Under the pieces are notes generated by a model. It searched no databases and was not told where the DNA came from. It saw only the letters and a list, made by a program, of their open reading frames with translations. A program made the position numbers and the translations under genes. DNA of 52,503 nucleotides, counting the filler, from Sphacelaria rigidula (Eukaryota): assembly GCA_964200075.2 (NCBI GenBank). It is 3 parts of 3 records of this genome, joined end to end, with 100 filler letters (N's around TTAATTAATTAA, not from the genome) between each part and the next. Parts side by side here need not be neighbours in the genome. Positions count along the whole stretch, not along the records: positions 35,074 to 52,503 come from CAXNAA020001086.1; 2 more parts are not named here. One strand, written 5' to 3'. Within the stretch, counting starts at the first letter, position 1; every line of letters begins with the position of its first letter. Positions 6,226 through 51,639 of this stretch are shown here, one piece after another.

Positions 6226-9200
6226 GTAAGGCTGTATCCTCCCCACGAGACCAACAAGCAAGGCAAGTACCGTGACAGACGTGCCAAAGAAACATTGAAA
6301 CATGAAAAAATCTCGTTCGTAAAATTAGAAAGCGAAACAGACCAAGAAGGAGAGCAGAACAACGAGAAAGCCGCGTGGATATAGAGAAGGCTAAAGCTAG
6401 GTCGCGACCTATGACGTCCGTAAACTGTCCCTCCCGGGAAAGAACGGAGCTGGCCATGCTGAGGCGGTCCTGCAAAAATATCAGGCAGTCGGATGTGACG
6501 TCATCGGACTACACGGAACGAGGAGACCAGGTCGGACCGAATTTTGTGCGGCGGAATATCGTGTCTTCTGCAGCGGGGCGGAGGGAGGCAAGGGAAGGGC
6601 TGGACAGCATGCGGTTGGGTTGGCGGTCAACGAGTCGATCATCAGCAAGGCGACGCGGACTCAGGCACTCATCAGCGAACGCCTCATGTCGATGACTTTC
6701 AACCTCGGGGGTAAAAATAAATGCTGCAACTTTGTAGTTGCATATGTCCCTCCAGACACTCAACAATCAAGGCAAGAGAGAAATGTGTTCTGGACTGAGT
6801 TACAGAGCATTGTGAACCATATCCCCCACAAAAACCACCTGTCTATTTCGATGGACGCTAACGCAAGGACTGGGGTACGAACAGGCGAGGAGGAACGTAA
6901 AATTGTGGGGGCATACGGCCGGGACCCCCGATCGAACGACATTGAAGGCATCTCTCTATTGCAATTTGCAGGCGACAACAGGGTTGCTCTGGTCAACACG
7001 TTCTTTTCCACCCCCAAGGGAAACACCTCGCGTACGTTCGTTAGTATTGCGAATCGCCCGGCGGACAAGAAACGCATTGCCTGCATCTTCACACCGCAAG
7101 ATCACCGCAGGCTTGTTCGCAATGTCACCGTCCACCTTCAACCTCCCAACTCGCCGGACTCTGACCACAACATGGTGTGCGTCTCAGTGCGGCTCCTCGG
7201 TCGCTTCGCACCCAACAGACGCAGACGAATGCCAATTGAGCGTACACCGATCGACAGACGGGCAATAATATCTGACCCCGACAGACGTGAGCTATCCACT
7301 CAGTTCATGATCAGCGAGCTCAAACAGAGTATACCTGACGATGCAGTTAGTTCAGTGGCTACGAACTTTGCCGACGTACTCTTGAGCGCCGCTGGAAAGG
7401 TGGTACCCCGTCTGACCCGAATGCCACGTTTACCGGGGTGGTTCGAGGATGTTGCCATCCGAACGGAGTTCGAGCAGGCCTGGAATGAGAGGGAAAGGAC
7501 GAGGTCAACGATGTGACTGGGACCATCACGAGATGAACCCTCATGGTGCACATCGCGAGCAGCGTGCAAAAGGGTGAAAGAGGTGATCCAAGTCGGGGTG
7601 GACAAATATATGGATGTGTATGCTAGAGAGTTGGAGGAGTATATTCGAGCGGGGGACATGACAGGATGGAACAGACATCGCAACGGATGACGAAGACGGT
7701 CAGGACGACCAATTGAGAGTGAGCAGAGCATTCGAGATGACGACGGCCATATACTGCGGGACAAAGGTTTGATCAGTGAGAGATGGCGTTGGTACTTCTT
7801 CACATCGATGAACGCCATATCGGCAACTATCGACCAAACCGTCAACGAGAAGATTGCACAACGACCGATAGCGCTGACACTAGGAGACCCACCAAGCCCA
7901 AGTGAAACTGGGGAGGCCCTGAGAGCTATTTTGAACGGCAAAGCAACGGGTCTGGATGGTCTACCTGCTGAAATCCTCAAGCTTGGACTCAACGGTGAAG
8001 CGTCGGAGACTCTGTACCACTTCTACAGCATCGTCGTTGCGGTTTGGACATCTGGTGAGGTGCCGCAGGAATGGAAAGATGTCAATATGAAAGTGGTGCA
8101 CGAAAAGAAACGATAGGACCGAGTGTGGTAACTACAGAGCCATTTCACTTATGGCACATGCTGCTAAAGTTCTCCTCAAAATCGTAGCCAACGAGCTCGG
8201 TAATTTTTTGTCAGGAAACAGATGTCTGTCCGGAAGAGCAGTGTGGATTTAGACGCCAACGATTGACCCCAGACATGAGATTCTAGTACGCCGACTTCAG
8301 GAGTTGGGACGGACGAGCAACGTCCCACTAGACATGCGCTTTATCGATCTGCAGAAAGCCTACGATTCCGTCGCCCGCACGCTCCTGTGGGCAGTGCTTG
8401 CTCGGTTCGGAGTCCCGTCGCGAATGATGATCATCTGTATGTGTCACGATGGCTTGCGAGCTCCGGTACAGCTAGATAGTGGCCAAGTATCAGCGTGATT
8501 CCACGTCTGCCAGGGACTCAGACAAGGTTGCGTTTCGTCCCCGCTGTTGTTCAACATCTTCGGAGCAACCTGGGTCGACGCGATCGTACAGCGGTTTGCG
8601 GCGGACCCAGTCATCATCTCGGACTTGATTTTTCTAGAAGATGCGCCAAAAGGTGGCGGTGGTGAACCCGTGGAAGAGCCGCCGTTGGAAAAGTTGCGAC
8701 GCGCGGTGTGGGTCATGCTTCATGCAGACGGCCCCGGCATGATATCGAGGACCTCGGATTGTCTTGCTCGAATGATGGTCATGATACCGGTGACCTTCCA
8801 GGAATTCGGCCTGATGATCTCCGAGAGCAAGCCAGAGCCCACGCGCCTTTGGTCAGTACTCAGCCCAACGGAGGCCGCCCTGCACATCAAAGCTGCCGGT
8901 CAACGGTAGAAGCAGACGGGGAAGTTCGTCTACTTTGGTGGTGGTATCAGCGCAGATGCGGAAATGTCGATCGAAGTCAACCGCCGTATCAGGGCGGCAT
9001 GGGGGCGTATCCGAAAATATATCTCCCAACTCTACGATCGACCCAACGCCCAGCTATCCTTGGCAGTCCGGCTGCTTAAAGCGGAGGTGGTGGAAGCTCT
9101 GTTGTACTCGTATGGATGTGCCTCATGGACGTAACGTTGTGAGGACTTCGACAGTCTGCGTACTGCCCATCACAAGCTCTTGCTGCTAGTGGTTGGATTC

Positions 9201-11855: not shown

Positions 11856-14800
11856 ATGGCGATGATATCGGAACACACCTTACCCCTGCCGGCGGGGGCC
11901 GGTAATCCGACTAATCATCGCCACCGCCGAAAGCAATGTTGCCGTAGCTCTAAGAGCAGACGGCGGCGTGCGTGTAAGCATAATGGTTGGCTTGGTGAAG
12001 GTCGACGTGCACAGAGCCCGCTGAACCCTGCGCAGGAGCAACTAGGCGAGAACCAACGTAGGCAGAAGAGAACATGGAAACAGAAAGTAGCCCGCAAATA
12101 CTGGATCAAACACCGGAAGGGAAGGGACATGGGCATATGAAGGAATAGAAGGAGGGAAAGATCAGCTCGGCGAGCAGCTAAGGCTTAGGCTCGTGCCAAT
12201 CACACTGCCGCAAGGCCGGTCGGTGGCCTGATCCAAAGAGCTGATAGTGGCCACCTGGAACGTACGCACCATGGCCGAGAGAGGTTCCAACGGCACAGGC
12301 CACGCAGAGGACCTGCTGATCTTTGCGTCCAAATAAAACTGTGATTTCGTCGCCCTCCAAGGAAGCCATCGCAATGGACGAACAACCATCCATGCACCAG
12401 CAGCAGCAATCACCGTTCACTGCAGCGGCCGCTGCAATGGACACGGGGTAAACCGGGAGTGCTCGGAGTCGGACTAGCCATCAAGGAGTCTATCGCCAGC
12501 ACGCTGGGCCCAGACGCCATCGCCCCCGAACACGTGAGTACCAGGACCCTTGAGGTACGAGTAGCTTTCAGGCAAAGAGCTGCAACAACCTTCATCGTAG
12601 GTATGCTCCTACTGAGACAGCACAAGGTTCTGAAAAGACCAAGTTCTGGGAAAACCGCAGTAGTTCCATTGCTGAAGTGCCCACCAACGAGCACCTAGTA
12701 CCCATGATGGATGCCAATGCCCGTACCGGACAGAGGGAAGGAGGAGGCATGGATGACGTTCGGGTATCGGGAGAATATGACAGAAATGCCCGGAGTGATG
12801 ACGGTAGACGCCTACTGAAGTACGCTGCGGAACATAAAATGGCCGTCAACAACACATTTTTTCGCACACCGACTCGCGGGGGAAGCTCGACTGCATACCT
12901 ATACGTGGGGCCGAAGGTCGAACACCGCTGGCGCCTGGACTACATCCTAGTACGTCAGTAAGACCGCGGACTCGTCCGAAATATCACTGTGCACCTCAAA
13001 ATGAAATCGGGCCATGGACTGGTCTCAGCTGCCATCCATCTCCTCGGACGGAGCGCACCCAACCGCCAACCGAAACCGGGAGACGAGGACAGAGAAGTGC
13101 GTTTCCACCGCAAAGTCTTTGCATCCGACCGACACAAAGTCATGGTCAAGCTCCTGAATGTCACTAACTCCCCAGCAGCAATGGACATCAACGACATGAC
13201 ATCTACCTCCGCCAACGCCCTACGACAGACGACCGTGGATACACTACCTCGATGCCCGAAGAACCCCCCATATCGTAGAGGTTTCAGTATGCCAACTCAG
13301 GCTAAGGATCGCCTCCAAAAGGCGTGGAATCTCAGGGAAAGTGTATGGAAGAAACTGCGCGCCAACCCCGAAAATATTGTCCTGAAGAAGGCGCCGAAGT
13401 GACGGACAAGGCGTTCAAACGGGTAAAGGATGCTGAGCTGCAGAACTTCGTTCACGAGTTCACAGCCTGGATAACAGCGTTTGTTCGCAAGAAGGACCAA
13501 GCAGAGGTGTACCAGCACATCAAGTCCTTGGAACTGGAAGGGAAGAAGCAGCGCGACTCAACCCACGTCAGGAGCGCGACTGGCGAGCTGTTGCGGGACA
13601 GGCAAGCTAGCCTGCAACGATGGAAGGAGTGGCTTGAAATACTACTGAACGCAACCTCGCCTATGATCGACCACTCTGTCATCGATCTCATCGAACAGAT
13701 GCTGGAGCACGCACCGCTCCCGGCGGAGCCCTCGATGGCAGAAGTGAAGGAAGCGGTGGGCAAGCTGGCGAACGGCAAGGTCGTTGGGACGGACAACATA
13801 TGTGGCGAACTATCGAAGCTTGGTCGCACCGAAGACTCTGCCATCCTGGAGTGCATCCACAACATCGTGCTCACCGTGTGAAGTCTGGACGTAGTGCCGC
13901 AAGGATGGAAAGACACCATCATCAAGGTGCTTTTTAAGAACCAGGACCGAATGCGGTCACAATGCACACGCACTCCCCGAACATGGAGGCGCATGAGGTC
14001 GAGGTGGAGGCAGCGTGCCAAAGATACAAGCACGTTGAGTCTTTCCTCTACCTTGGCGGGAAAATCAGCAGCATCGGCGATGTCACTTCTGATATCCACA
14101 GCCGCATTGGCCAGGCCTGGACGTGCTCCTTCAAGTACAGCAGAGCGGTATACGACAACCCGTACATCGCCCTGGCGACCAAGGTTCCTTTCCTGGAGAC
14201 TGAAGCGATCGAGGTAATGCTGTACGGCTGCGTGACCTGGACGATCGCACACGATAAACCCGGCGCGTTACGGAAGGCCCATCGAGGTTTCTCGCTGAGG
14301 TGCCTCAAAAAGCATACCTCGAGCCACAGCGTCCGTGACTAGCACATGCTGCCATACCACGACTGCGTCGAGGCCACCGTGATGACACGAATCCTCCTAC
14401 GCACCGGCCGCGTTGTGCCGTTGTGCGCATGCATGATGAGCACCTCCCCAACGTCGCCACGCGTAGAGTGATGGTTGGAGGGAAGAAATAGGCATGCCGA
14501 CCTGCAAGGCTCCTATAACACTGTAATGTATACTGTATCACGGAATGTTCTTACTTTGGAATAAGCGCGACATCGTGGAGACGCAGGTTGCCCAAGATGT
14601 ATCCAGATGGTACCGAGTCATAGAGGATGAGGCTAACATGCATATTGCAATTTGGATCAAAGCACACCATGCTAAGGAATTGTTTGCTGTGCTGCTACTA
14701 GAGTTCTCCCAGTGCCTACTGAGAAACTACGGGAAGTAACCAGTAGCCCTTCGGGTAGTACGCTCGCTAGTGCATCTGCGGTCTTTCCGACCAGCATCGG

Positions 14801-17439: not shown

Positions 17440-17539
17440 NNNNNNNNNNNNNNNNNNNNNNNNNNNNNNNNNNNNNNNNNNNNTTAATTAATTAANNNNN
17501 NNNNNNNNNNNNNNNNNNNNNNNNNNNNNNNNNNNNNNN
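17440..17539. other. Artificial assembly spacer
   Basis: N44-TTAATTAATTAA-N44, exactly 100 bp, with stops in all six frames. Confidence 0.97.
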
Positions 17540-27806: not shown

Positions 27807-28065
27807 ACCGTCCGTGCTATTCTAGCAATTCTGTATTTCGAGAGTATTTTTCAGCCCTCAGCATCTGGAGGACTTGCTGTACCTGCAGTCAAACACTATC
27901 GAAAGCACCGAGTAAAGTGTTCCACAGTAACCGGAGTATCGATCGCCAACATTATTGCGTACGAGTATTACAGAGTTGTCGGGAGTATGGACACCCCTCA
28001 GGTTCCCTATCTTGAGCACTTCTGTTGCTCTACAATATCTTGCTATCATCTCATACCGTGAGAAC

Positions 28066-28510
28066 CCCTTCGAAACCCTTCGTGCACCGGGCCTCATTTC
28101 GGAACAATATTTAACTCCTTTGCAACCGTTTGAGCACCAGGTCTCATTTCGGAACAACATATGAATCTTTCGAAATCCCTCGAGTGTCAGGCCTCCTATC
28201 GGAACAGTATTTGACTCCTTCGAAACCCATTGAGCACTAGGTCTCCTTTCGGAACAATATCTAGCTCCTTTGAACCTCCCTGAGCACCAGGTCTCATGGC
28301 GGAACAACATCTAACTCCTTTAAAACCCACTGAGCACCAGGTCTCCCTGCGGAACAATATCTACCTCCTTCGAAACCGTTGAGTACCAGGTCTCCTCTCG
28401 GAACTATATCTAACTCCTTCGAAACCCCTTGGGCACCAGGTCTCCTTGCGGAACAATATCTACCTCCTTCGAAACCGTTGAGTACCAGGTCTCCTCTCGG
28501 AATAATATTA
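28066..28510. repeat. ~49-50-bp minisatellite, ~9 units
   Basis: Consensus ggaacaatatctaactccttcgaaaccnttgagcaccaggtctcctttc. Confidence 0.9.
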
Positions 28511-29371
28511 ACGACCGACTTTTATTGCCGCCAGCCCCGAAGCTGTAGCTCAGCGTCTCCTCTCTGTTTGCCACCATCTTCCCCAACGACAGCCTACCGT
28601 GTACGTGCTGCATACACTTCGCGGTCCCCATTCCCAAAGCGCTTCTTTTTGATATTTGCAGTGCTCGACCTGGAGTCCACACATGTCATCTGCCGCATAC
28701 TGGATCAGTACAGTTTCCGCGGACTGGTCGACAAAGTGCATGGTTGAAACAAATACCTGGTTTTAATGTAGACGGTCACAGTTGGATCTTCAGGGGCTGA
28801 CAGTCCCTGGCGCGCGCACAACATGCGCAGGAGGTGTTATGGCTCAAATTGGCGCCTACCGCGCCTAGATAGGCTCTGTCAACGCACGCTTTTACCTAGA
28901 TCATGGTACTCACCCCCCTTGCCCGAGGGTTCCGGTTTGCCTGGGGTCTGGGTTGGCGTTAGCGTTATAGTATTGTTAGCGTTAGCGTTACAGGTGGCGC
29001 CAGTACTTGAGAACCGCCTGTTTTACACGAGGCTCGAGGCTCATTTCCTCTGTAGGGCAACCAACAGCGACTTGACAGCATCGTAGTGGAGGGCTTCTTA
29101 CCGGCGTCACAATTTGTGCACAAGTTCCTATATATTGATACTTTTGAGGCCTAAGTTCTCAGATGCCAAGTTTTTCAGTGGTGACTCCACCCGTAGCGTT
29201 AGCGCTAGCCTTAACTGTAAATACTGTAAAACGATGTATGCTGATACCTGACGTGCGTTTCGGACCCGAGAATATGCCCCCCCCGTGATGGCAGCACCTA
29301 CCTCCCGCCCCGCCCTCCTTGGTGTCGCTATTTTCCCACAACTGTGAAATAGGGTCACGAGAAGAGCAGCC

Positions 29372-34973: not shown

Positions 34974-35073
34974 NNNNNNNNNNNNNNNNNNNNNNNNNNN
35001 NNNNNNNNNNNNNNNNNTTAATTAATTAANNNNNNNNNNNNNNNNNNNNNNNNNNNNNNNNNNNNNNNNNNNN
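34974..35073. other. Artificial assembly spacer
   Basis: N44-TTAATTAATTAA-N44, identical to the first spacer. Confidence 0.97.
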
Positions 35074-35331: not shown

Positions 35332-35585
35332 ACGGCCAATACTTGGAGTTGGACCCTGAAATTTGGTATGGACAGTAAGTTAAGCATAACAAAAAAAAAA
35401 TACTGGCGCACACAAGGTTTTTTTCTTCTCATGAGTGGAGGGCAATACTCAGTTTTCAGGTATCGGTAAAATGCCCTTAACTCATGAAAAAAATAATAAC
35501 CTTGTGTGCGCCAGTATTTTTCCATTATTATGCCCTACTCATTGTCCATACCAAATTTCAGGGTCAAACTCCAAGTATTGGCCGT
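35332..35585. repeat. Inverted repeat / fold-back, ~113-bp arms, ~27-nt loop
   Basis: acggccaatacttggagttggaccctgaaatttggtatggaca...aatactggcgcacacaaggtt...tcatgagt is mirrored at 35472-35585. Confidence 0.85.
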
Positions 35586-45900: not shown

Positions 45901-48900
45901 AGTACAGTGGCCGCCATTCGGCAGCAGTGTATCCGAATACCACTCGGTTGTGAGTCGCGTCTCGGAACAGTACTTTCGAGTAAAGTCCTGTGAGTAAGCA
46001 TGACGTATGTGTACCTTCGAGACGGGGAGGCGTAGTATGTTCCGAGGACCCGTTTTAATCTCGGAATCGTGCAACACTACAGTCCGAGACACAAACAAGC
46101 GAGGAATTCATCTTCTGTTTCGCTATCCAAGACGTCAACATATAAAACTCTCGCAGGATTGCTCAACGTGAACTTGTTCTGTCAGGCCAAACTTTTCTTT
46201 CCCGGTACGCTCCCGTATCGTAGATTACATCAGCATTCCCACGCCGTGCCGGCTCTGGTCGAATGAACTTTACTTTCGTATTTGCGTCCTCACCTTTTGA
46301 AAAAAGCTCAGATGCATCTACTGACAGCGATATTCGAACCCTTACTATTTCGACCTAAACGATTTCACTTGTGTCAGGTGGACAAGAGGAGTACGGCGCC
46401 TGGGGGGTGGGGAGAAAATCAGCGACAAAGTCCGCCCTCCGTCGTCCCACATCATCCCCTCATCTTCCAAATATCGACCAGATTTTGCGTTGTACTCATA
46501 GATGGAAAATCCTTTCCAGAACTGGTTGCACTCAACTGGCTGCACTTGCTCTGTGCTGCATGTTACCGTGATTAGATCGCAGTGAGGTACAGTACGCAGA
46601 TTTTCCGTCCCAAAACCCGGGATTCCTGAAAATGCGGAGGCGTTTGAAGGCATATAAATCTATATATAATTAGAGAGAGAGAGATTCAGGACAGTTTGGT
46701 ACTCCTTTTTGGTTGTCTAACCGACACAAGTGGATGTTTGCCATGTCAACAAGTAGTTGTTCACCGCATCAGAGGTGAAGGGGTGCATCCGCAGGAAACT
46801 CGAGGGTTTCCTCACATCAGGCGTTTCTAGCTCGAAGCCGGGGAGTACTTCACGGGAACCGTAGGTAAGGTGCTGTACCGAGCGTACCCCCGGAATTTAC
46901 CGGGGTATCTCACACCGTGGTACGCGTGGGTATCGTAGGTATGAGTTTTGGAAATACCTGATTAAGTGGGTATGGTAGGTGTTGAAATCCCGAAATCCCG
47001 TGGTATCGTAGTTGTCGAAGACGTGAGTTTTGAAAATATCTGATTGAGCGGGTACGGTAGCTACTGGTATCTCGAAATACCGTGGTATCGTAGGTATGAC
47101 ACTTGCGAATACCCGCTAGGGGGGTACGGTCGGTACTAGTATCTCGAGATACCGTAGGTATCGTAGGTACGACATTTGAAAATACCCGATTGGGTCGGTA
47201 TCCGAAGGGTGTGATATGTCCCAAATACCGGTACCGGGTACATACCTTACCCGCTATACCGACTTCAGAACTGTAACCGGCAGTGCGGAGAAGCATTTCA
47301 GGGTGTGACTTGGCACCTTTATTTTTCGATCGAAAAAATGGGGGCGGTTGAATTGATTTGAGCGAAAATCGCTCATTTTTGTCGAGTTGGGTCCAAGCGA
47401 GTTTCAAGCTTTCGATCCAAAATGACCGTGAAATTCGTGGAACCGACCTCACAGGGTCACTCGTGTACAGTACATAAAGTCTGTACTGTCTGCACTGCGT
47501 GCAAGCAATGTCTTGAGTGCGTGTGTGCATATTTTGCACAGTACGATTGAGAAGCGGGCAACGTGCAGTACAGACAGCCTAGTACCATGGTTCTGTGAGT
47601 GGGTGTTATCTGTATGGTGGTCTATAATACAGGAGTCAAGTGCCGCTTCGTGCCTTTCGACCGCATGTTTTCGATTCAAGAAGCTTGGCTTCATCATTCT
47701 GTAGTTTTCCTCCGCGCGCCACTAATTATGCATTTGAGTTGAAGCCTTTTATATGGCACAGGCACGGACAGTGGGTGTAACTTATCTTACCCGGACAGTG
47801 GGTGTATGTAGGCTGTAGGCTGTAGCTTCTCACTCGGTGACAGGGTACATAGTGTGCGGAGCCGAGACATGAACGTGAACGGGACGGACTTTGCAAGGCA
47901 GGGTGTGGGTTGGAATGCAGAATACCTGGGTAGGGGGCTCCGACGGGGAGCCCCCAAGGCGGGAGAAACGCGATCCCAGACTGGGGATTGGAGGATGACA
48001 GTCCCAGGGTGACAGGTCCGGGTTGACTGGTCCGGAGTTATTAGTAAGCGGATCGGGTTATATACAGGTCAAAATAACACTTTCAAGACACAGGCCGGCG
48101 GACAGCGGGTGTGCCTACCTAACCCGGACGGTGAGGGTGTGTGGGTACTTTGTAGTTTGTAGCTTCTCACTCGGTGAAAGGGTACGGAGTGTGCGGAGCC
48201 GCGACGTGGACTTGAACGGGACGGACACTCCGTGCCCTTTCACCGAGTGAGAAGCTACAAACTACAAAGTACCCACACACCCTCACCGTCAGGGTTAGGT
48301 AGGCACACCCGCTGTCCGCAGACCTGTGCATCATGTCGGCGTCGACGGTAGGACCCGAACCTACGCGTGAAATCACAATGGGATTCCAATCCCAACTGGT
48401 AGCAATCACGGCGCTGCTACTTTTTCACTGTACGGGGACGCCTTAGCATATGAAAACCTTTCTCCCAGCCTTGATGGAGGCAGTCTCCTTGTGTACCACC
48501 AACTGATGGAGGGTCAAATCGATTGGGAGTCAGACCGTGTCACACCAGACGACGTGCGTGGGCGGGTGGGCCCGGGGACGTTGTTTTGCGTTCACGGTCG
48601 GATTTGTTTTTTCGTTTCCGACGGGGTGTTGTGGGAGGTGACTCAAACGGGAACCCGGACCGACGATGCTTGGACAGCATTCACTGTGTGTATGTCGTCG
48701 AACGGTCTCAAACCTGCCGTTCGCCACTTGTCTACAACAGAAGAACAGCCCGTTACCCCGCAAGAGGCTGTCGACCGCGCCCGTAATGTTGAAGCGGGCG
48801 ATACATCCGCTGTAGCTGAGGGGGGTATGTTATTATGACCTGTATGACCCGACCCGCTTACTAATAACCCCGGGCTTGTCAACCCCGACCATCTTCCCGG

Positions 48901-50787
48901 ACCTGTCACCCTGGGACTGTCATCCTCCAATCCCCAGTCTGGGATTGTCTTTCTCCCGTCGTGGAGGCTCCTCGTGAGAGCCCCCTACCCAGGCACTCTG
49001 CATTCCAACCCAAACCCTGCCTTGCAAAGTCCGTCCCGTTCAAGTTCACGGTGGGCATATGTAGGTTGTAGCTTCTCACTCGGTGACAGGGTACAAAGTG
49101 TGCGGGGCCGAGACGTGAACGTGAACGGGACGGACTTTGCAAGGCAGGGTGTGGGTTGGAATGCAGAATGCCTGGGTAGGGGGCTCCGACGGGGAGCCCC
49201 CAAGGCGGGAGAAACACGATCCTAGACTGGGGATTGGAGGATGACAGTCCCAGGGTGACAGGCCCGGGAAGACGGTCCGGGTTGACTGGTCCGGGGTTAT
49301 TAGTAAGCGGGTCGGGTCATATACAGGTCAAAATAACACTTTCAAGAACAGAAATGCGGTGGGCCTATCAGATCGAGAAGAACAAATAGGCCGCACTTCA
49401 GACTACATAATGATCGGCTATTTCGAATTGATCCAAACACGAAAATCAGAGGGAATCTAGTCATCTATTACTTGTGAAAACGAGACGTACCTGCTCCGAC
49501 AACTCCTGGCCTTCGCGTAACATGGGACCAGCTGCTGCACCGTGGGGAGTGCATCGCGTCCGGTATTTACCGGGTATAACCCCGCTTATATATACCCGAT
49601 GAATACCGGGTATCCCATACCGTGGTATGTGTGGGTGTCATAGATATGAGTTTTGGAAATACCTGATTGAGCTGGTGCAGTAGGTTTTGAAATCTCGAAA
49701 TACCGTGGTATAATAGGGATCGTAAATACGACATTTGAAATACCCGAATGTGCGGGTACGGTAGGTACTGGTATATCGAAATACCGTGGTATCGTCGGTA
49801 TCGTAAATACGACATTTGAAAATATCCGATTGGACCGGTATCGGTAGGGTATGAGATTTCCCGAATACCTAAACTGGTATCTACCTTATCTACGGTGCCT
49901 GTGGAACTCGTACTTCCATCATTGGTTTACAGTAGGATACTCCAACTGTTCGAAGTGTGACTGACTGTACCGCCCTCTCTGGATAAGTACAGCGGGACAA
50001 TGAACGTAAAGAAGAACCACAATCGGTCAGAAAAACTTTTGTCCTCTGTATAAAACTCGTACTCCAATGACGGTAATCGGCACGACAGCCGACATCCGTA
50101 AGATTCACACGAGAGAGATTAGCACATGAAAGCGGGAACGTGGGCGCGTCGAAGTTTTTGTGGATGCGGTACATGTAAATACAGCCGGTGGCCAAGGAAC
50201 GCGAGCAGCAAAGTGGGCACGGTTTTCGGATAAACTAGCGTCCTTGGCGCCGCACACCCGCGCAACCCCGTCTCCATCGCACATCGTCTAGATGCGTTGT
50301 CATCGCTTGCACCGAGTGTTCTCGCAGTTGGTGGCGATGAAAATGGGCGCATGGGATATTGTCGAATCCAGAGCAGCGTCGACCAACACAAGATCAGGGA
50401 TCCGCTCTACAGTACCGACTGTACTGTTGTCTGTCTACACACCAGGCTAAGTTATGCACACAAATCAACTACGACACACACCTTGTCATAGTCAAGGTTC
50501 GCCGCCCAAGTTTGCACAGGACTAGCTGAAGTCACGAACACAGCACCAAGCGCAGACAGCGCGGCGGACTGCAGCATGCTCCTGCGGTCCATAGGCTCAT
50601 CTCCACACCGGTGATCATCCCCACGCGCAGAGGAAGCCTGCATGCTTACGATGCTGCTCGTGACTCGGTGAGAGCTTCGTTGAGTACCAACAGAAGAGGA
50701 TCTCAGTGTTGCGCTCGGGACGAAAGCGTGGCTTTCCATGGTGGCCGAGAGGGTTGCCGTGGCTGCAATCGCTAGTGCAATCTTCAT
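36819..50787 (-). CDS. Class I heme peroxidase (ascorbate peroxidase / cytochrome c peroxidase family), plastid and probably thylakoid-lumen targeted; 8 exons, 367 aa
   Basis: Exons 50787-50482, 45765-45704, 44864-44739, 44321-44217, 43475-43299, 41718-41607, 39250-39159, 36942-36819. All introns are GT-AG with consistent phases; 1104 nt ending in TGA. Motifs: [16 protein letters not shown] (distal Arg/Trp/His), [15 protein letters not shown] (proximal His), SGYEGPW (proximal Trp), LMMLPSD (proximal Asp), [16 protein letters not shown]. Confidence 0.95.
37811..37946. repeat. Small MITE-like inverted repeat, ~54-bp arms
   Basis: Termini cacaccctggac...gtccagggtgtg; a related single arm lies at ~24415-24475. 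Confidence 0.7.
39159..39250 (-). CDS. Peroxidase exon 7
   Basis: actcag|[30 protein letters not shown](K)|gtgagt. Confidence 0.95.
41607..41718 (-). CDS. Peroxidase exon 6
   Basis: ccacag|[37 protein letters not shown]|gtatgg. Confidence 0.95.
43216..43251 (-). mobile_element. 36-bp LINE-C 3'-end copy with perfect 15-bp target-site duplication
   Basis: aggtgtctgtggggg at 43201-43215 and 43252-43266 flanks ggggggcgtactcatttgttgcttgccttagtcatt. Confidence 0.85.
43299..43475 (-). CDS. Peroxidase exon 5 (proximal heme His)
   Basis: gtccag|[58 protein letters not shown](R)|gtattt. Confidence 0.95.
44217..44321 (-). CDS. Peroxidase exon 4
   Basis: tcgtag|[34 protein letters not shown](K)|gtgagt. 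Confidence 0.95.
44739..44864 (-). CDS. Peroxidase exon 3 (distal active site)
   Basis: tgtcag|(R)[41 protein letters not shown](E)|gtaagt. Confidence 0.95.
45704..45765 (-). CDS. Peroxidase exon 2
   Basis: aaacag|[20 protein letters not shown](R)|gtaata; joins in frame to RLAWH. Confidence 0.9.
46880..47255 (+). repeat. Dispersed repeat with internal subrepeats (copy 1, peroxidase intron 1)
   Basis: Units tctcgaaataccgtggtatcgtaggta...tttgaaaatacc; a second copy lies at 49561-49890. Confidence 0.75.
47754..49338. mobile_element. Rearranged small non-autonomous LTR element (TRIM-like) in peroxidase intron 1
   Basis: ~330-bp repeat with TGTTATT...CA termini in five pieces: minus 47754-48079, 48089-48226 and 49051-49338; plus 48225-48333 and 48828-49050. 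A tRNA-complementary region follows the plus 3' piece, and a purine tract gagggggg (48818-48825) precedes TGT at 48828. Confidence 0.75.
48337..48394 (-). other. tRNA-Ser-derived 3' two-thirds (extended primer-binding region; not a functional tRNA gene)
   Basis: Minus strand tgggattggaatccca (anticodon arm) ttgtgatttcacgc (long variable arm) gtaggttcgggtcctac (T arm) cgtcgac-g-ccg (acceptor 3' strand, G discriminator, CCA-like end). The D arm and 5' acceptor strand are absent. Confidence 0.65.
49561..49890 (+). repeat. Dispersed repeat with internal subrepeats (copy 2, peroxidase intron 1)
   Basis: Shares tatgagttttggaaatacctgatt, gaaataccgtggtat and tacgacatttgaaaata with 46880-47255. Confidence 0.75.
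50482..50787 (-). CDS. Peroxidase exon 1: tripartite targeting presequence
   Basis: [24 protein letters not shown] (signal peptide plus ASAFAP-like cleavage site), Ser/Arg-rich transit peptide, MDRRSML + hydrophobic stretch + TWA-A; ends AAG|gtgtgt, phase 0. Confidence 0.88.
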
Positions 50788-51639
50788 GGTTTTCAGAGTC
50801 TCTATCGAAAAGTCAATGCGTCGTCTGTACAGAGTTTTGTTCTGTCTGCTATGCTGGGGTGGCGCTGGTGATGGGGAGGCGACCTGACATGTTGTGCCGT
50901 TGTTGCAGTAGCTGCGAACCGTAACTTGATGTCAATTGATTCGAGGCGGATTATTGGCCAGCGAGAATACACGTTTATGTGTATCATCGCACGGCTGGAG
51001 ATTTTCTCTTGTGCAAAGCTCACACAGACTAGCAAGCACGATGCTTGGCAATGGAGAGGAAACAGACGTATTGAATTCACTGATTTTTTTCTGCGATAGG
51101 TACCGAGCCCCCATGAGTGCTGCTTCGGTCTTGAGACGACACAGGCGGGGGGAAACTAACAAACCACCCCCGCATCAACACGCCAAATGCGGCGAGATTT
51201 TGGTTTTTATTCTCGCTCATCGCAGTGTGCCACCGCCTACCGCAGCCGGCTGCACTGAACGCAGCACACTCACCTTTAGGTACGGATACTACAAGCGCTG
51301 TAAGTTTTGGACTCTCCTGTGATCCCTAGGAAGTCTTTGGCGAAAGGTGAGATATAACATTTCATGGTTGCGGGGCGTTGCACTCAACTTTCTCTGTAGG
51401 TGCGGAAAATCGTATCGTGTTCCAGTTTGCCTGACGCGGATTACACCCCCCCCCCCCCGAGCGCTCTTGGTCTGCCCTCGATTTATCAAGCATCAAGTCC
51501 TAAACATACGATAGAGCCTGTTCAACGAGAAGAATCATGAGCATTGCCCCAATAATGTCACATTTGTCTCCTTGCATCGTGTGATTGTCGAGAAGTCGAA
51601 GCTCCAACCCTTGTTGCCAAGGGTGTCCCCGACCGTCAC

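Follow-up and report, generated by a model that had tools for sequence, protein, structure and literature searches.

A probable primer-tRNA copy in register with the primer-binding site of a rearranged LTR retroelement in Sphacelaria rigidula

How does a long terminal repeat (LTR) retroelement come to carry, just inside its LTR terminus, the complement of 58 nt of a tRNA? The question is raised by positions 48337-48394 of a 52,503-nt stretch of Sphacelaria rigidula DNA (assembly GCA_964200075.2; hereafter the window), within the part taken from CAXNAA020001086.1. Coordinates refer to this whole stretch, and tRNA positions follow standard numbering. According to the excerpts available of PMC8599865 and PMC13191261 (all literature cited here by PMC number is represented by excerpts), 18 nt of the primer are copied into plus-strand strong-stop DNA, and synthesis ends one base short of the 1-methyladenosine at position 58 (m1A58). 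We propose that the 58 nt are probably a reverse-transcribed copy of the primer tRNA, of the cytoplasmic serine-type class II kind, in register with the ordinary primer-binding site (PBS) of a small non-coding LTR retroelement. A first-pass annotation had listed an LTR end at 48333, a spacer, the 58 nt, a tggtagca motif, a purine tract and a TGTTATT LTR start; all lie where it placed them, and the layout of LTR end, tRNA complement, non-coding interior, purine tract and LTR start is real.

Reading the tRNA arms by coordinates on the reverse complement of 48337-48394 yields positions 27 to 76 of a class II tRNA. The 3' end consists of a 7-nt acceptor 3' strand, G73 and then CCG (74-76). The T arm is GTAGG / TTCGGGT / CCTAC (5/5 pairs), the 14-nt variable region holds a 4-bp hairpin (4/4 pairs), and the anticodon arm is TGGGA / TTGGAA / TCCCA (5/5 pairs), with a loop of 6 nt instead of 7 and the anticodon GGA, so that all 14 stem pairs of the stretch are intact. 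The first-pass description of a long-variable-arm tRNA with a GGA anticodon and G73 is borne out, and the copied tRNA appears, from these sequence features, to be a serine tRNA. Eukaryotes as a rule encode AGA where the copy has GGA. The complement of tRNA position 76 begins 3 nt past an LTR terminus ending in CA, and the T stem pairs a PBS segment (48348-48352) with a segment of the extension (48360-48364) at 5/5 positions. The first base of the PBS is C where T would be expected for the complement of a tRNA 3' end. Taken alone, the CCG is no evidence of a CCA end; it calls for a substitution under one reading and has a chance of about 1 in 64 under the other.

Profile and gene searches place the stretch outside the range of ordinary tRNA genes. 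The Rfam tRNA model gives a 5'-truncated match to a 63-nt query (model positions 24-71) at 10.7 bits, far below the gathering score of 29, with E = 6.3 over 4227 families or about 0.0015 for the single family asked; the departures from the consensus are a G at the conserved A58 and one base missing in the anticodon loop. ARAGORN at default settings reports 0 complete tRNA genes in the window. Together, the low Rfam score and the ARAGORN negatives indicate a partial tRNA copy and not a gene. A whole but decayed tRNA at the locus was also ruled out, as ARAGORN finds none down to ps70 and its two ps60 predictions are unrelated; the 24 nt upstream of position 27 match the 5' part of the tRNA found in a second contig (below) at 9/23 positions by eye, which is about chance. 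Minimum-energy folding against shuffled sequences (z = -1.15 for 63 nt, -0.84 for 97 nt) is no test for a partial tRNA.

To gauge the resemblance directly, both window strands were scanned for two successive hairpins, the first with 5 pairs and a loop of 6-7 nt, the second resembling a T arm (5 pairs; G53, TTCR and C61). The scan returns one site, the 48337-48394 stretch itself, while sixty Markov simulations of 105 kb give a mean of 0.067 sites, with at least one site in 3/60. Combined with the antisense placement 3 nt from an LTR terminus, this rarity makes chance negligible (about 1 in 10^4 to 10^5 by our own estimate). No other window site lies within 2 mismatches of the 16-nt PBS word, and two lie at 3 mismatches, within chance. 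Acceptor-plus-T-arm words and LTR words retrieve 0 DNA stretches from metagenome, viral contigs and prokaryote genomes.

Sequencing runs give an independent view of the locus. Five of 7 runs, whose labels include 'algae metagenome', contain part of the stretch (0.26-0.37 of 166 sampled words), and their contigs place the LTR in a high-copy repeat of the same organism. One contig from run X2 tracks the window to 48353, that is, through 17 nt of the PBS, and then continues for 159 nt as unlike, non-tRNA sequence. We read this contig as a sibling with an ordinary-length PBS that shares the LTR end, which it has to match in order to be placed here, its left match limit not being listed; such a sibling would mean that the short site exists in a relative and that the extension continues a short site. 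A comparison of the sibling sequence past 48353 with the window past 48410 (about 59% by eye with 3 gaps) was discarded as not meaningful.

A second version, at single-copy depth in X1, X3 and X4, matches the window only to 48392 (tRNA position 29); 26 letters that differ from the window follow before the joint to 49059. Read as the reverse complement, this insert extends the tRNA back from position 28: it completes the 5' strand of the anticodon stem, and adds position 26, a D arm as long as in class II tRNAs (17 nt between positions 9 and 27) with a GAGTGG loop start, T8 and G9, and an acceptor 5' strand that is complementary at 6/7 positions to the acceptor 3' strand in the window. The version joins an internal LTR point at about the first base of the tRNA. 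Because it supplies the missing 5' part, it confirms the tRNA reading independently, and it shows a second, nearly full-length tRNA copy beside an LTR piece.

Contig depth separates the tRNA body from its junction with the LTR, and serves as a hint only, since summed contig depth is not copy number. Summed depth over 48348-48380 is about 90-120x single-copy in X1, X3 and X4 and 16x in X2, against about 3-5x over 48282-48314; bin arithmetic places the abundant matches at about 48341-48392, which covers the tRNA body but leaves out the CCG, the spacer and the LTR end. The low-summed-depth parts (48282-48314 and 48447-48479) are not taken as evidence of absence. These values suggest that the genome holds many tRNA-Ser-like sequences, and that the junction of LTR end and extension belongs to the 48333/48337 locus and few others, as a private or low-copy feature.

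We suggest the following route to this arrangement. [quoted passage not shown] In one instance the strand copying U5 and the first 18 nt of the attached primer would have failed to stop before position 58, copied the T, variable and anticodon arms as well, and halted before position 26; the overlong product would still have been resolved to double-stranded DNA and fixed in the chromosome, and a later or simultaneous rearrangement would have left only complementary LTR fragments beside inverted LTR pieces. Where the m1A58 stop is lacking, synthesis does enter the tRNA. Modified bases, position 37 among them, then cause minor stops, and on an unmodified tRNA the copy reaches the 5' end (PMC8599865 and PMC13191261, in excerpt). 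In the accessible text of PMC8062790, N2,N2-dimethylguanosine at position 26 (m2,2G26) blocks reverse transcriptases, and inosine at position 34 (I34), as in tRNA-Ser-AGA, is encoded as A and copied as G. G58, the short anticodon loop and the end at position 27 thus coincide with places where modified bases stop or mislead reverse transcriptases, and G58, G34 and the 6-nt loop may be the marks of such bases. From G58, the missing loop base, the GGA anticodon, the end at 27 and the 14/14 intact stems we infer one read-through event on a mature, modified tRNA-Ser, and the copy in the second contig ends at the mature tRNA 5' end, as expected of run-off on a tRNA template.

The surroundings of the stretch are a mosaic of five LTR pieces, A to E, and not an intact element (Table 1). 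The pieces were resolved by repeat finding, self-BLAST and alignment. Repeat finding shows B and C as an inverted pair (arms 48089-48195 and 48222-48328, 107 nt, 95% complementary, 26 nt between), and alignment gives them 92.8% identity over 111 aligned nt. D and E form a second inverted pair (arms 48843-49050 and 49114-49321, 91%, 63 nt between), and A and E are 92.6% identical over 297 aligned nt. B and C represent one LTR subtype and A and E another, while D is 84-86% identical to A and E. The termini are of the TG...CA type, with TGTTATT starts (48828; A; E) and a ...GCATCA end (48333), and the polypurine tract and TGTTATT start lie about 420 nt 3' of the tRNA complement in the same direction.

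Table 1. Components of the LTR cluster at the tRNA-like stretch, in window coordinates
Feature	Position	Strand	Remarks
LTR copy A, subfamily 2	47754..48079	-	near full length; TGTTATT start at 48079, end ...CCTGTGCCA at 47754
9-nt linker tcttgaaag (minus strand), between LTR end B and LTR start A	48080..48088	-	
LTR fragment B, LTR 3' part (alignment columns ~226-344)	48089..48226	-	inverted vs C
LTR fragment C, final ~107 nt of LTR (U5 side)	48227..48333	+	ends ...cctgtgcatca
Spacer tgt, 3 nt, LTR end to PBS	48334..48336	+	
PBS, canonical-length part, complement of tRNA positions 76-59	48337..48354	+	CGG where TGG expected
PBS extension, complement of tRNA 58-27 (rest of T loop, T stem 5' strand, variable arm, anticodon arm)	48355..48394	+	
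tggtagca motif; may repeat part of the PBS tail or be another PBS-like word	48397..48404	+	
Non-coding internal region	48395..48817	+	
Polypurine tract gagggggg, then ta, 2 nt 5' of LTR start	48818..48825	+	
LTR fragment D, first 223 nt of LTR (U3 side), TGTTATT start	48828..49050	+	
LTR copy E, subfamily 2, 3'-truncated	49051..49338	-	inverted vs D
Second copy of the 9-nt linker, beside E	49339-49347; then LTR-end-like remnant ~49348-49375		

In direct order, the only LTR parts present are the 3' ~107 nt (48227-48333) and the 5' 223 nt (48828-49050). Elsewhere in the organism's runs D is followed directly by C with 12 nt between (joint 49050 to 48225), from which we reconstruct an LTR of about 344 nt; by the same joint, the series C, PBS, interior, polypurine tract and D is a circular permutation of a mini-element minus those 12 nt. 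The intact small LTR element of the first-pass annotation is therefore not what is found: its left LTR is the last ~107 nt and its right LTR the first 223 nt of the ~344-nt LTR, and both adjoin inverted LTR pieces (at 48226/48227 and 49050/49051). Loose contig ends at 48840/48843 in three runs mark where other copies lose similarity 5' of the D start. No target-site duplication of 4-6 bp is recognized, both outer LTR ends being missing, and no further LTR copies were found in the window outside 47754-49375. Possible sources of the mosaic are a reinserted one-LTR circle, captured cDNA or a template-switch rearrangement. The LTR subtype assignments rule out two simpler histories. A single standard element was not simply inverted, since C resembles B (92.8%) and not E (76.1%), and an insertion nested in one LTR fails because B and E share about 95 LTR columns and come from different subfamilies. 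Self-primed strong-stop DNA as the origin of the B/C hairpin was likewise rejected, since B extends about 36 nt beyond the C start and no tRNA precedes B.

Three further observations concern the cluster. The 9-nt linker twice joins an LTR 3' end or remnant to the next LTR start, an arrangement that resembles a tandem LTR-LTR junction with a short insert; such short-insert junctions occur as two-LTR circle junctions (PMC5618025, in excerpt). A 23-nt near-palindrome (GGGGGCTCCGACGGGGAGCCCCC) lies within the LTR in copies A (47933-47955) and E (49179-49201). Tandem-repeat arrays of 81-82 nt flank the cluster at 46942-47093 and 49656-49848 (wider limits 46898-47249 and 49604-49888) and are 74-82% alike, so that the LTR cluster seems to sit within one satellite-like array.

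The internal region is non-coding and has no gag/pol capacity, in agreement with the annotation, which had recognized neither. Pfam families are absent from all 12 of 12 translated frames, and translations across the LTR/PBS junction and of the interior have no protein matches. The stop-to-stop frame at 48371-48838 likewise contains 0 Pfam families and has no homologue at E <= 0.01, and substitutions relative to sibling contigs fall on codon positions 1/2/3 as 7/6/4 (17 rows listed). In the runs, 48409-48869 recurs as an exact single-copy contig in X3 and X4, with near-exact contigs covering 48409-48836 in X1 and 48462-48810 in X2. The last ~150 nt of the interior (48659-48809) have ~85%-alike relatives elsewhere in the genome, represented by contigs that match only this part (three per run in X1, X3 and X4, one in X2; 19-23 differences per ~150 nt). 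As these relatives end ~23 nt later at the high-copy LTR start, they mark the shared 3' end of the element interior and not host DNA. Just past the tRNA-like part and tggtagca, 48414-48446 has a summed depth of ~16x single-copy in X1, X3 and X4, even though the exact contig here begins at 48409, and may be a further short repeat, perhaps the family's leader. The 6 Rfam matches at E <= 10 in 47000-50500 include no ribozyme family, and so no retrozyme hammerhead. Matches to MIR1031, MIR6426, mir-36 and MIR6234 were set aside as far below gathering scores; because they fall on two long inverted repeats, we regard these microRNA-model matches as by-products of hairpins.

Several points weigh against a read-through origin. 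Read-through products are described, in the part of PMC8599865 available, as unable to complete synthesis and integrate. The copy ends in CCG and not CCA, and the argument assumes that the actual host gene is of serine identity and has A34, A58 and a loop of 7 nt. About 100 copy-equivalents in three runs (summed depth, no copy number) match the tRNA body only, and so a gene- or SINE-like (short interspersed nuclear element) family exists as a possible source of fragments. The evidence for the sibling is one contig, from the thinnest run. The locus is rearranged, with neither LTR whole and no readable target duplication, and the 15 nt past position 27, which contain GGTAGCA, lack an explanation. 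GGTAGCA resembles the PBS tail GGTAGGA, but not significantly (283 of 5000 random window 14-mers do so equally well), and the GGTAGGA/GGTAGCA repeat flanking the stretch is equally non-significant as a possible SINE target duplication.

Under an alternative explanation, the stretch is no PBS at all and is instead a fragment of a genomic tRNA-Ser gene, a pseudogene or a tRNA-derived repeat (SINE-like or Helenus-like) that came to lie beside the LTR terminus, either through insertion next to an RNA polymerase III gene or through local rearrangements. Retrotransposons that target tRNA genes are known (PMC5006619, in excerpt), as are miniature retrotransposons with terminal repeats (TRIMs) that have tRNA-like parts (accessible text of PMC10886601). 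The tRNA-body-only sequence at ~100x single-copy in X1, X3 and X4 and ~16x in X2 speaks for such a source, although summed depth makes this a weak indication; the second locus has a nearly whole tRNA-like sequence adjoining another LTR piece, the five-fragment mosaic has two non-homologous inverted junctions, and the end reads CCG, not CCA. Yet this explanation has to treat the antisense orientation, the 3-nt distance from the CA terminus and the co-oriented purine tract and LTR start all as coincidence, and a sibling that keeps the LTR end and 17 nt before turning to non-tRNA sequence is unexpected of a tRNA gene neighbour. The stretch also lacks the 5' third that bears the A box, and hence any SINE head; by the criteria for tRNA-derived SINEs, the A-box region is absent from the window's copy and an antisense LTR, not a SINE body, lies beyond the tRNA 3' end. 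The junction at the second locus lies within the LTR and not at its terminus, and so is not the work of integrase. We regard a gene or SINE fragment as unlikely, and a read-through copy of the primer as the better account.

The long complement might alternatively be a selected feature, regardless of how it first arose, by which the non-coding element would pair with ~58 nt of its primer tRNA, for example in primer capture or packaging. Contacts between element RNA and primer tRNA beyond the 18-nt site are known in retroviruses, and in lentiviruses complementarity is conserved up to tRNA position 54 (PMC8599865, in excerpt); moreover, the 14/14 stem pairs are intact while the LTR fragments have diverged by at least 7%. 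Only ~2 disrupting changes would be expected by our own estimate, however, which leaves the intact stems without significance, and pairing would leave position 58 mismatched and the anticodon loop bulged. Depth gives no sign that the LTR-end/extension junction is common to many copies. We consider selected pairing quite improbable. Least credible, to the point of being very improbable, is that the tRNA resemblance arose by chance or that a repeat-rich region was misassembled at the junction. The Rfam score falls well short of its gathering score, minimum-energy folding does not single out the cloverleaf arms, and among the longest contig pieces listed none bridges 48333/48337. Set against this are the single scan site where 0.067 are expected, the second contig, which gives the missing D arm and acceptor strand in register, and the exact contigs from two studies that cover 48409-48869 or most of it.

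Returning to the read-through of the primer, the annotation had envisaged a TRIM-like family that fixed such a copy of its mature primer. The read-through part stands as the best explanation, whereas fixation in the family does not, in view of the low-copy depth and the sibling with a 17-nt site; the tRNA copy in this rearranged remnant probably stems from a private or low-copy event rather than being a trait of the family. A stronger version would take the stretch as a fossil of a mature modified tRNA-Ser, with G34 recording inosine, G58 m1A, the missing loop base a modified position 37 or 38 and the end at 27 m2,2G26, within a family that repeatedly made and fixed overlong primer copies, the second locus being another. 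We hold this version to be distinctly unlikely.

The element shares with TRIMs its short TG...CA LTRs and a brief interior that codes for nothing, with a putative PBS next to the inner edge of the 5' LTR and a purine tract ahead of the 3' LTR, and its reconstructed size would be ~1.2 kb (344 + 494 + 344 nt). It differs from them in that no intact copy was seen, the LTRs being complementary fragments of one LTR, with no target duplication, and in the length of the tRNA complement, 58 nt compared with 8-18 in TRIMs. Helenus/TRIMp3 is likewise a small non-coding LTR element containing a tRNA-like sequence, and elements of this type can inflate genome counts of tRNA-like sequences; there, however, the tRNA-like part lies inside the LTR in sense orientation, with A and B boxes that form an RNA polymerase III promoter, and the PBS is separate and short (all per the excerpted PMC10886601). 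Here the stretch lies outside the LTR, antisense, without tRNA positions 1-26, and continuous with the PBS. A tRNA-Ser primer has precedent in the Drosophila 17.6-group errantiviruses (PMC3383448, in excerpt), which are autonomous members of Ty3/gypsy, have an ordinary-length site and are likened here by primer only.

A further parallel is with overlong plus-strand strong-stop DNA, in which synthesis passes position 58 and stops at modified bases or the tRNA 5' end (PMC8599865 and PMC13191261, excerpts). The end points here, 27 in the window and about 1-2 in the second contig, belong to the same series. The overlong products, however, are known from reactions in vitro and from mutant cells, and those excerpts present them as dead ends, whereas here the DNA is fixed in a chromosome. 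In open-access literature no LTR element turned up that carries so long an uninterrupted tRNA complement in a chromosome, which is no proof of absence. A strong-stop-DNA model for the birth of tRNA-derived SINEs was reportedly put forward by Ohshima et al. in 1993. The minus strand of 48227-48394 resembles the intermediate of that model, with a tRNA, a CCA-like end, a few bases and antisense U5; unlike a nascent SINE, it gives no sign of transcription or SINE-like spread, and its abundant look-alikes match the tRNA body only.

Primer tRNA read-through is treated as a fatal error of retroviral replication, and a chromosomal copy would show that rescue is possible. If the host tRNA confirms the pattern, the DNA would preserve a read-out of tRNA modifications at positions 26, 34, 37 and 58 in an alga where these are unmapped. 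A true read-through copy would give concrete material to a long-standing idea, the origin of tRNA-derived repeats in primer-plus-strong-stop intermediates, and the fossil version would make the locus a working example of such intermediates seeding tRNA-like repeats in a genome. If instead the stretch is a fragment of a tRNA gene or SINE, the locus is an ordinary repeat mosaic adjoining a tRNA-derived fragment.

Elsewhere in the window, long open frames at 6401-7516 (+) and 13306-13881 (+) look by eye like a non-LTR retrotransposon endonuclease and the part following it, with no Pfam match at E <= 0.01. An open frame at 50452-50931 (-) has a hydrophobic, signal-peptide-like stretch after its first methionine and no Pfam family. 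A tandemly repeated block occupies 28063-28512, with offset self-matches 77-82% identical. Four runs of exactly 44 N occur as two pairs with 12 nt between the members (17440-17483 and 17496-17539; 34974-35017 and 35030-35073), the second of which adjoins a 255-nt self-inverted repeat at 35332-35585.

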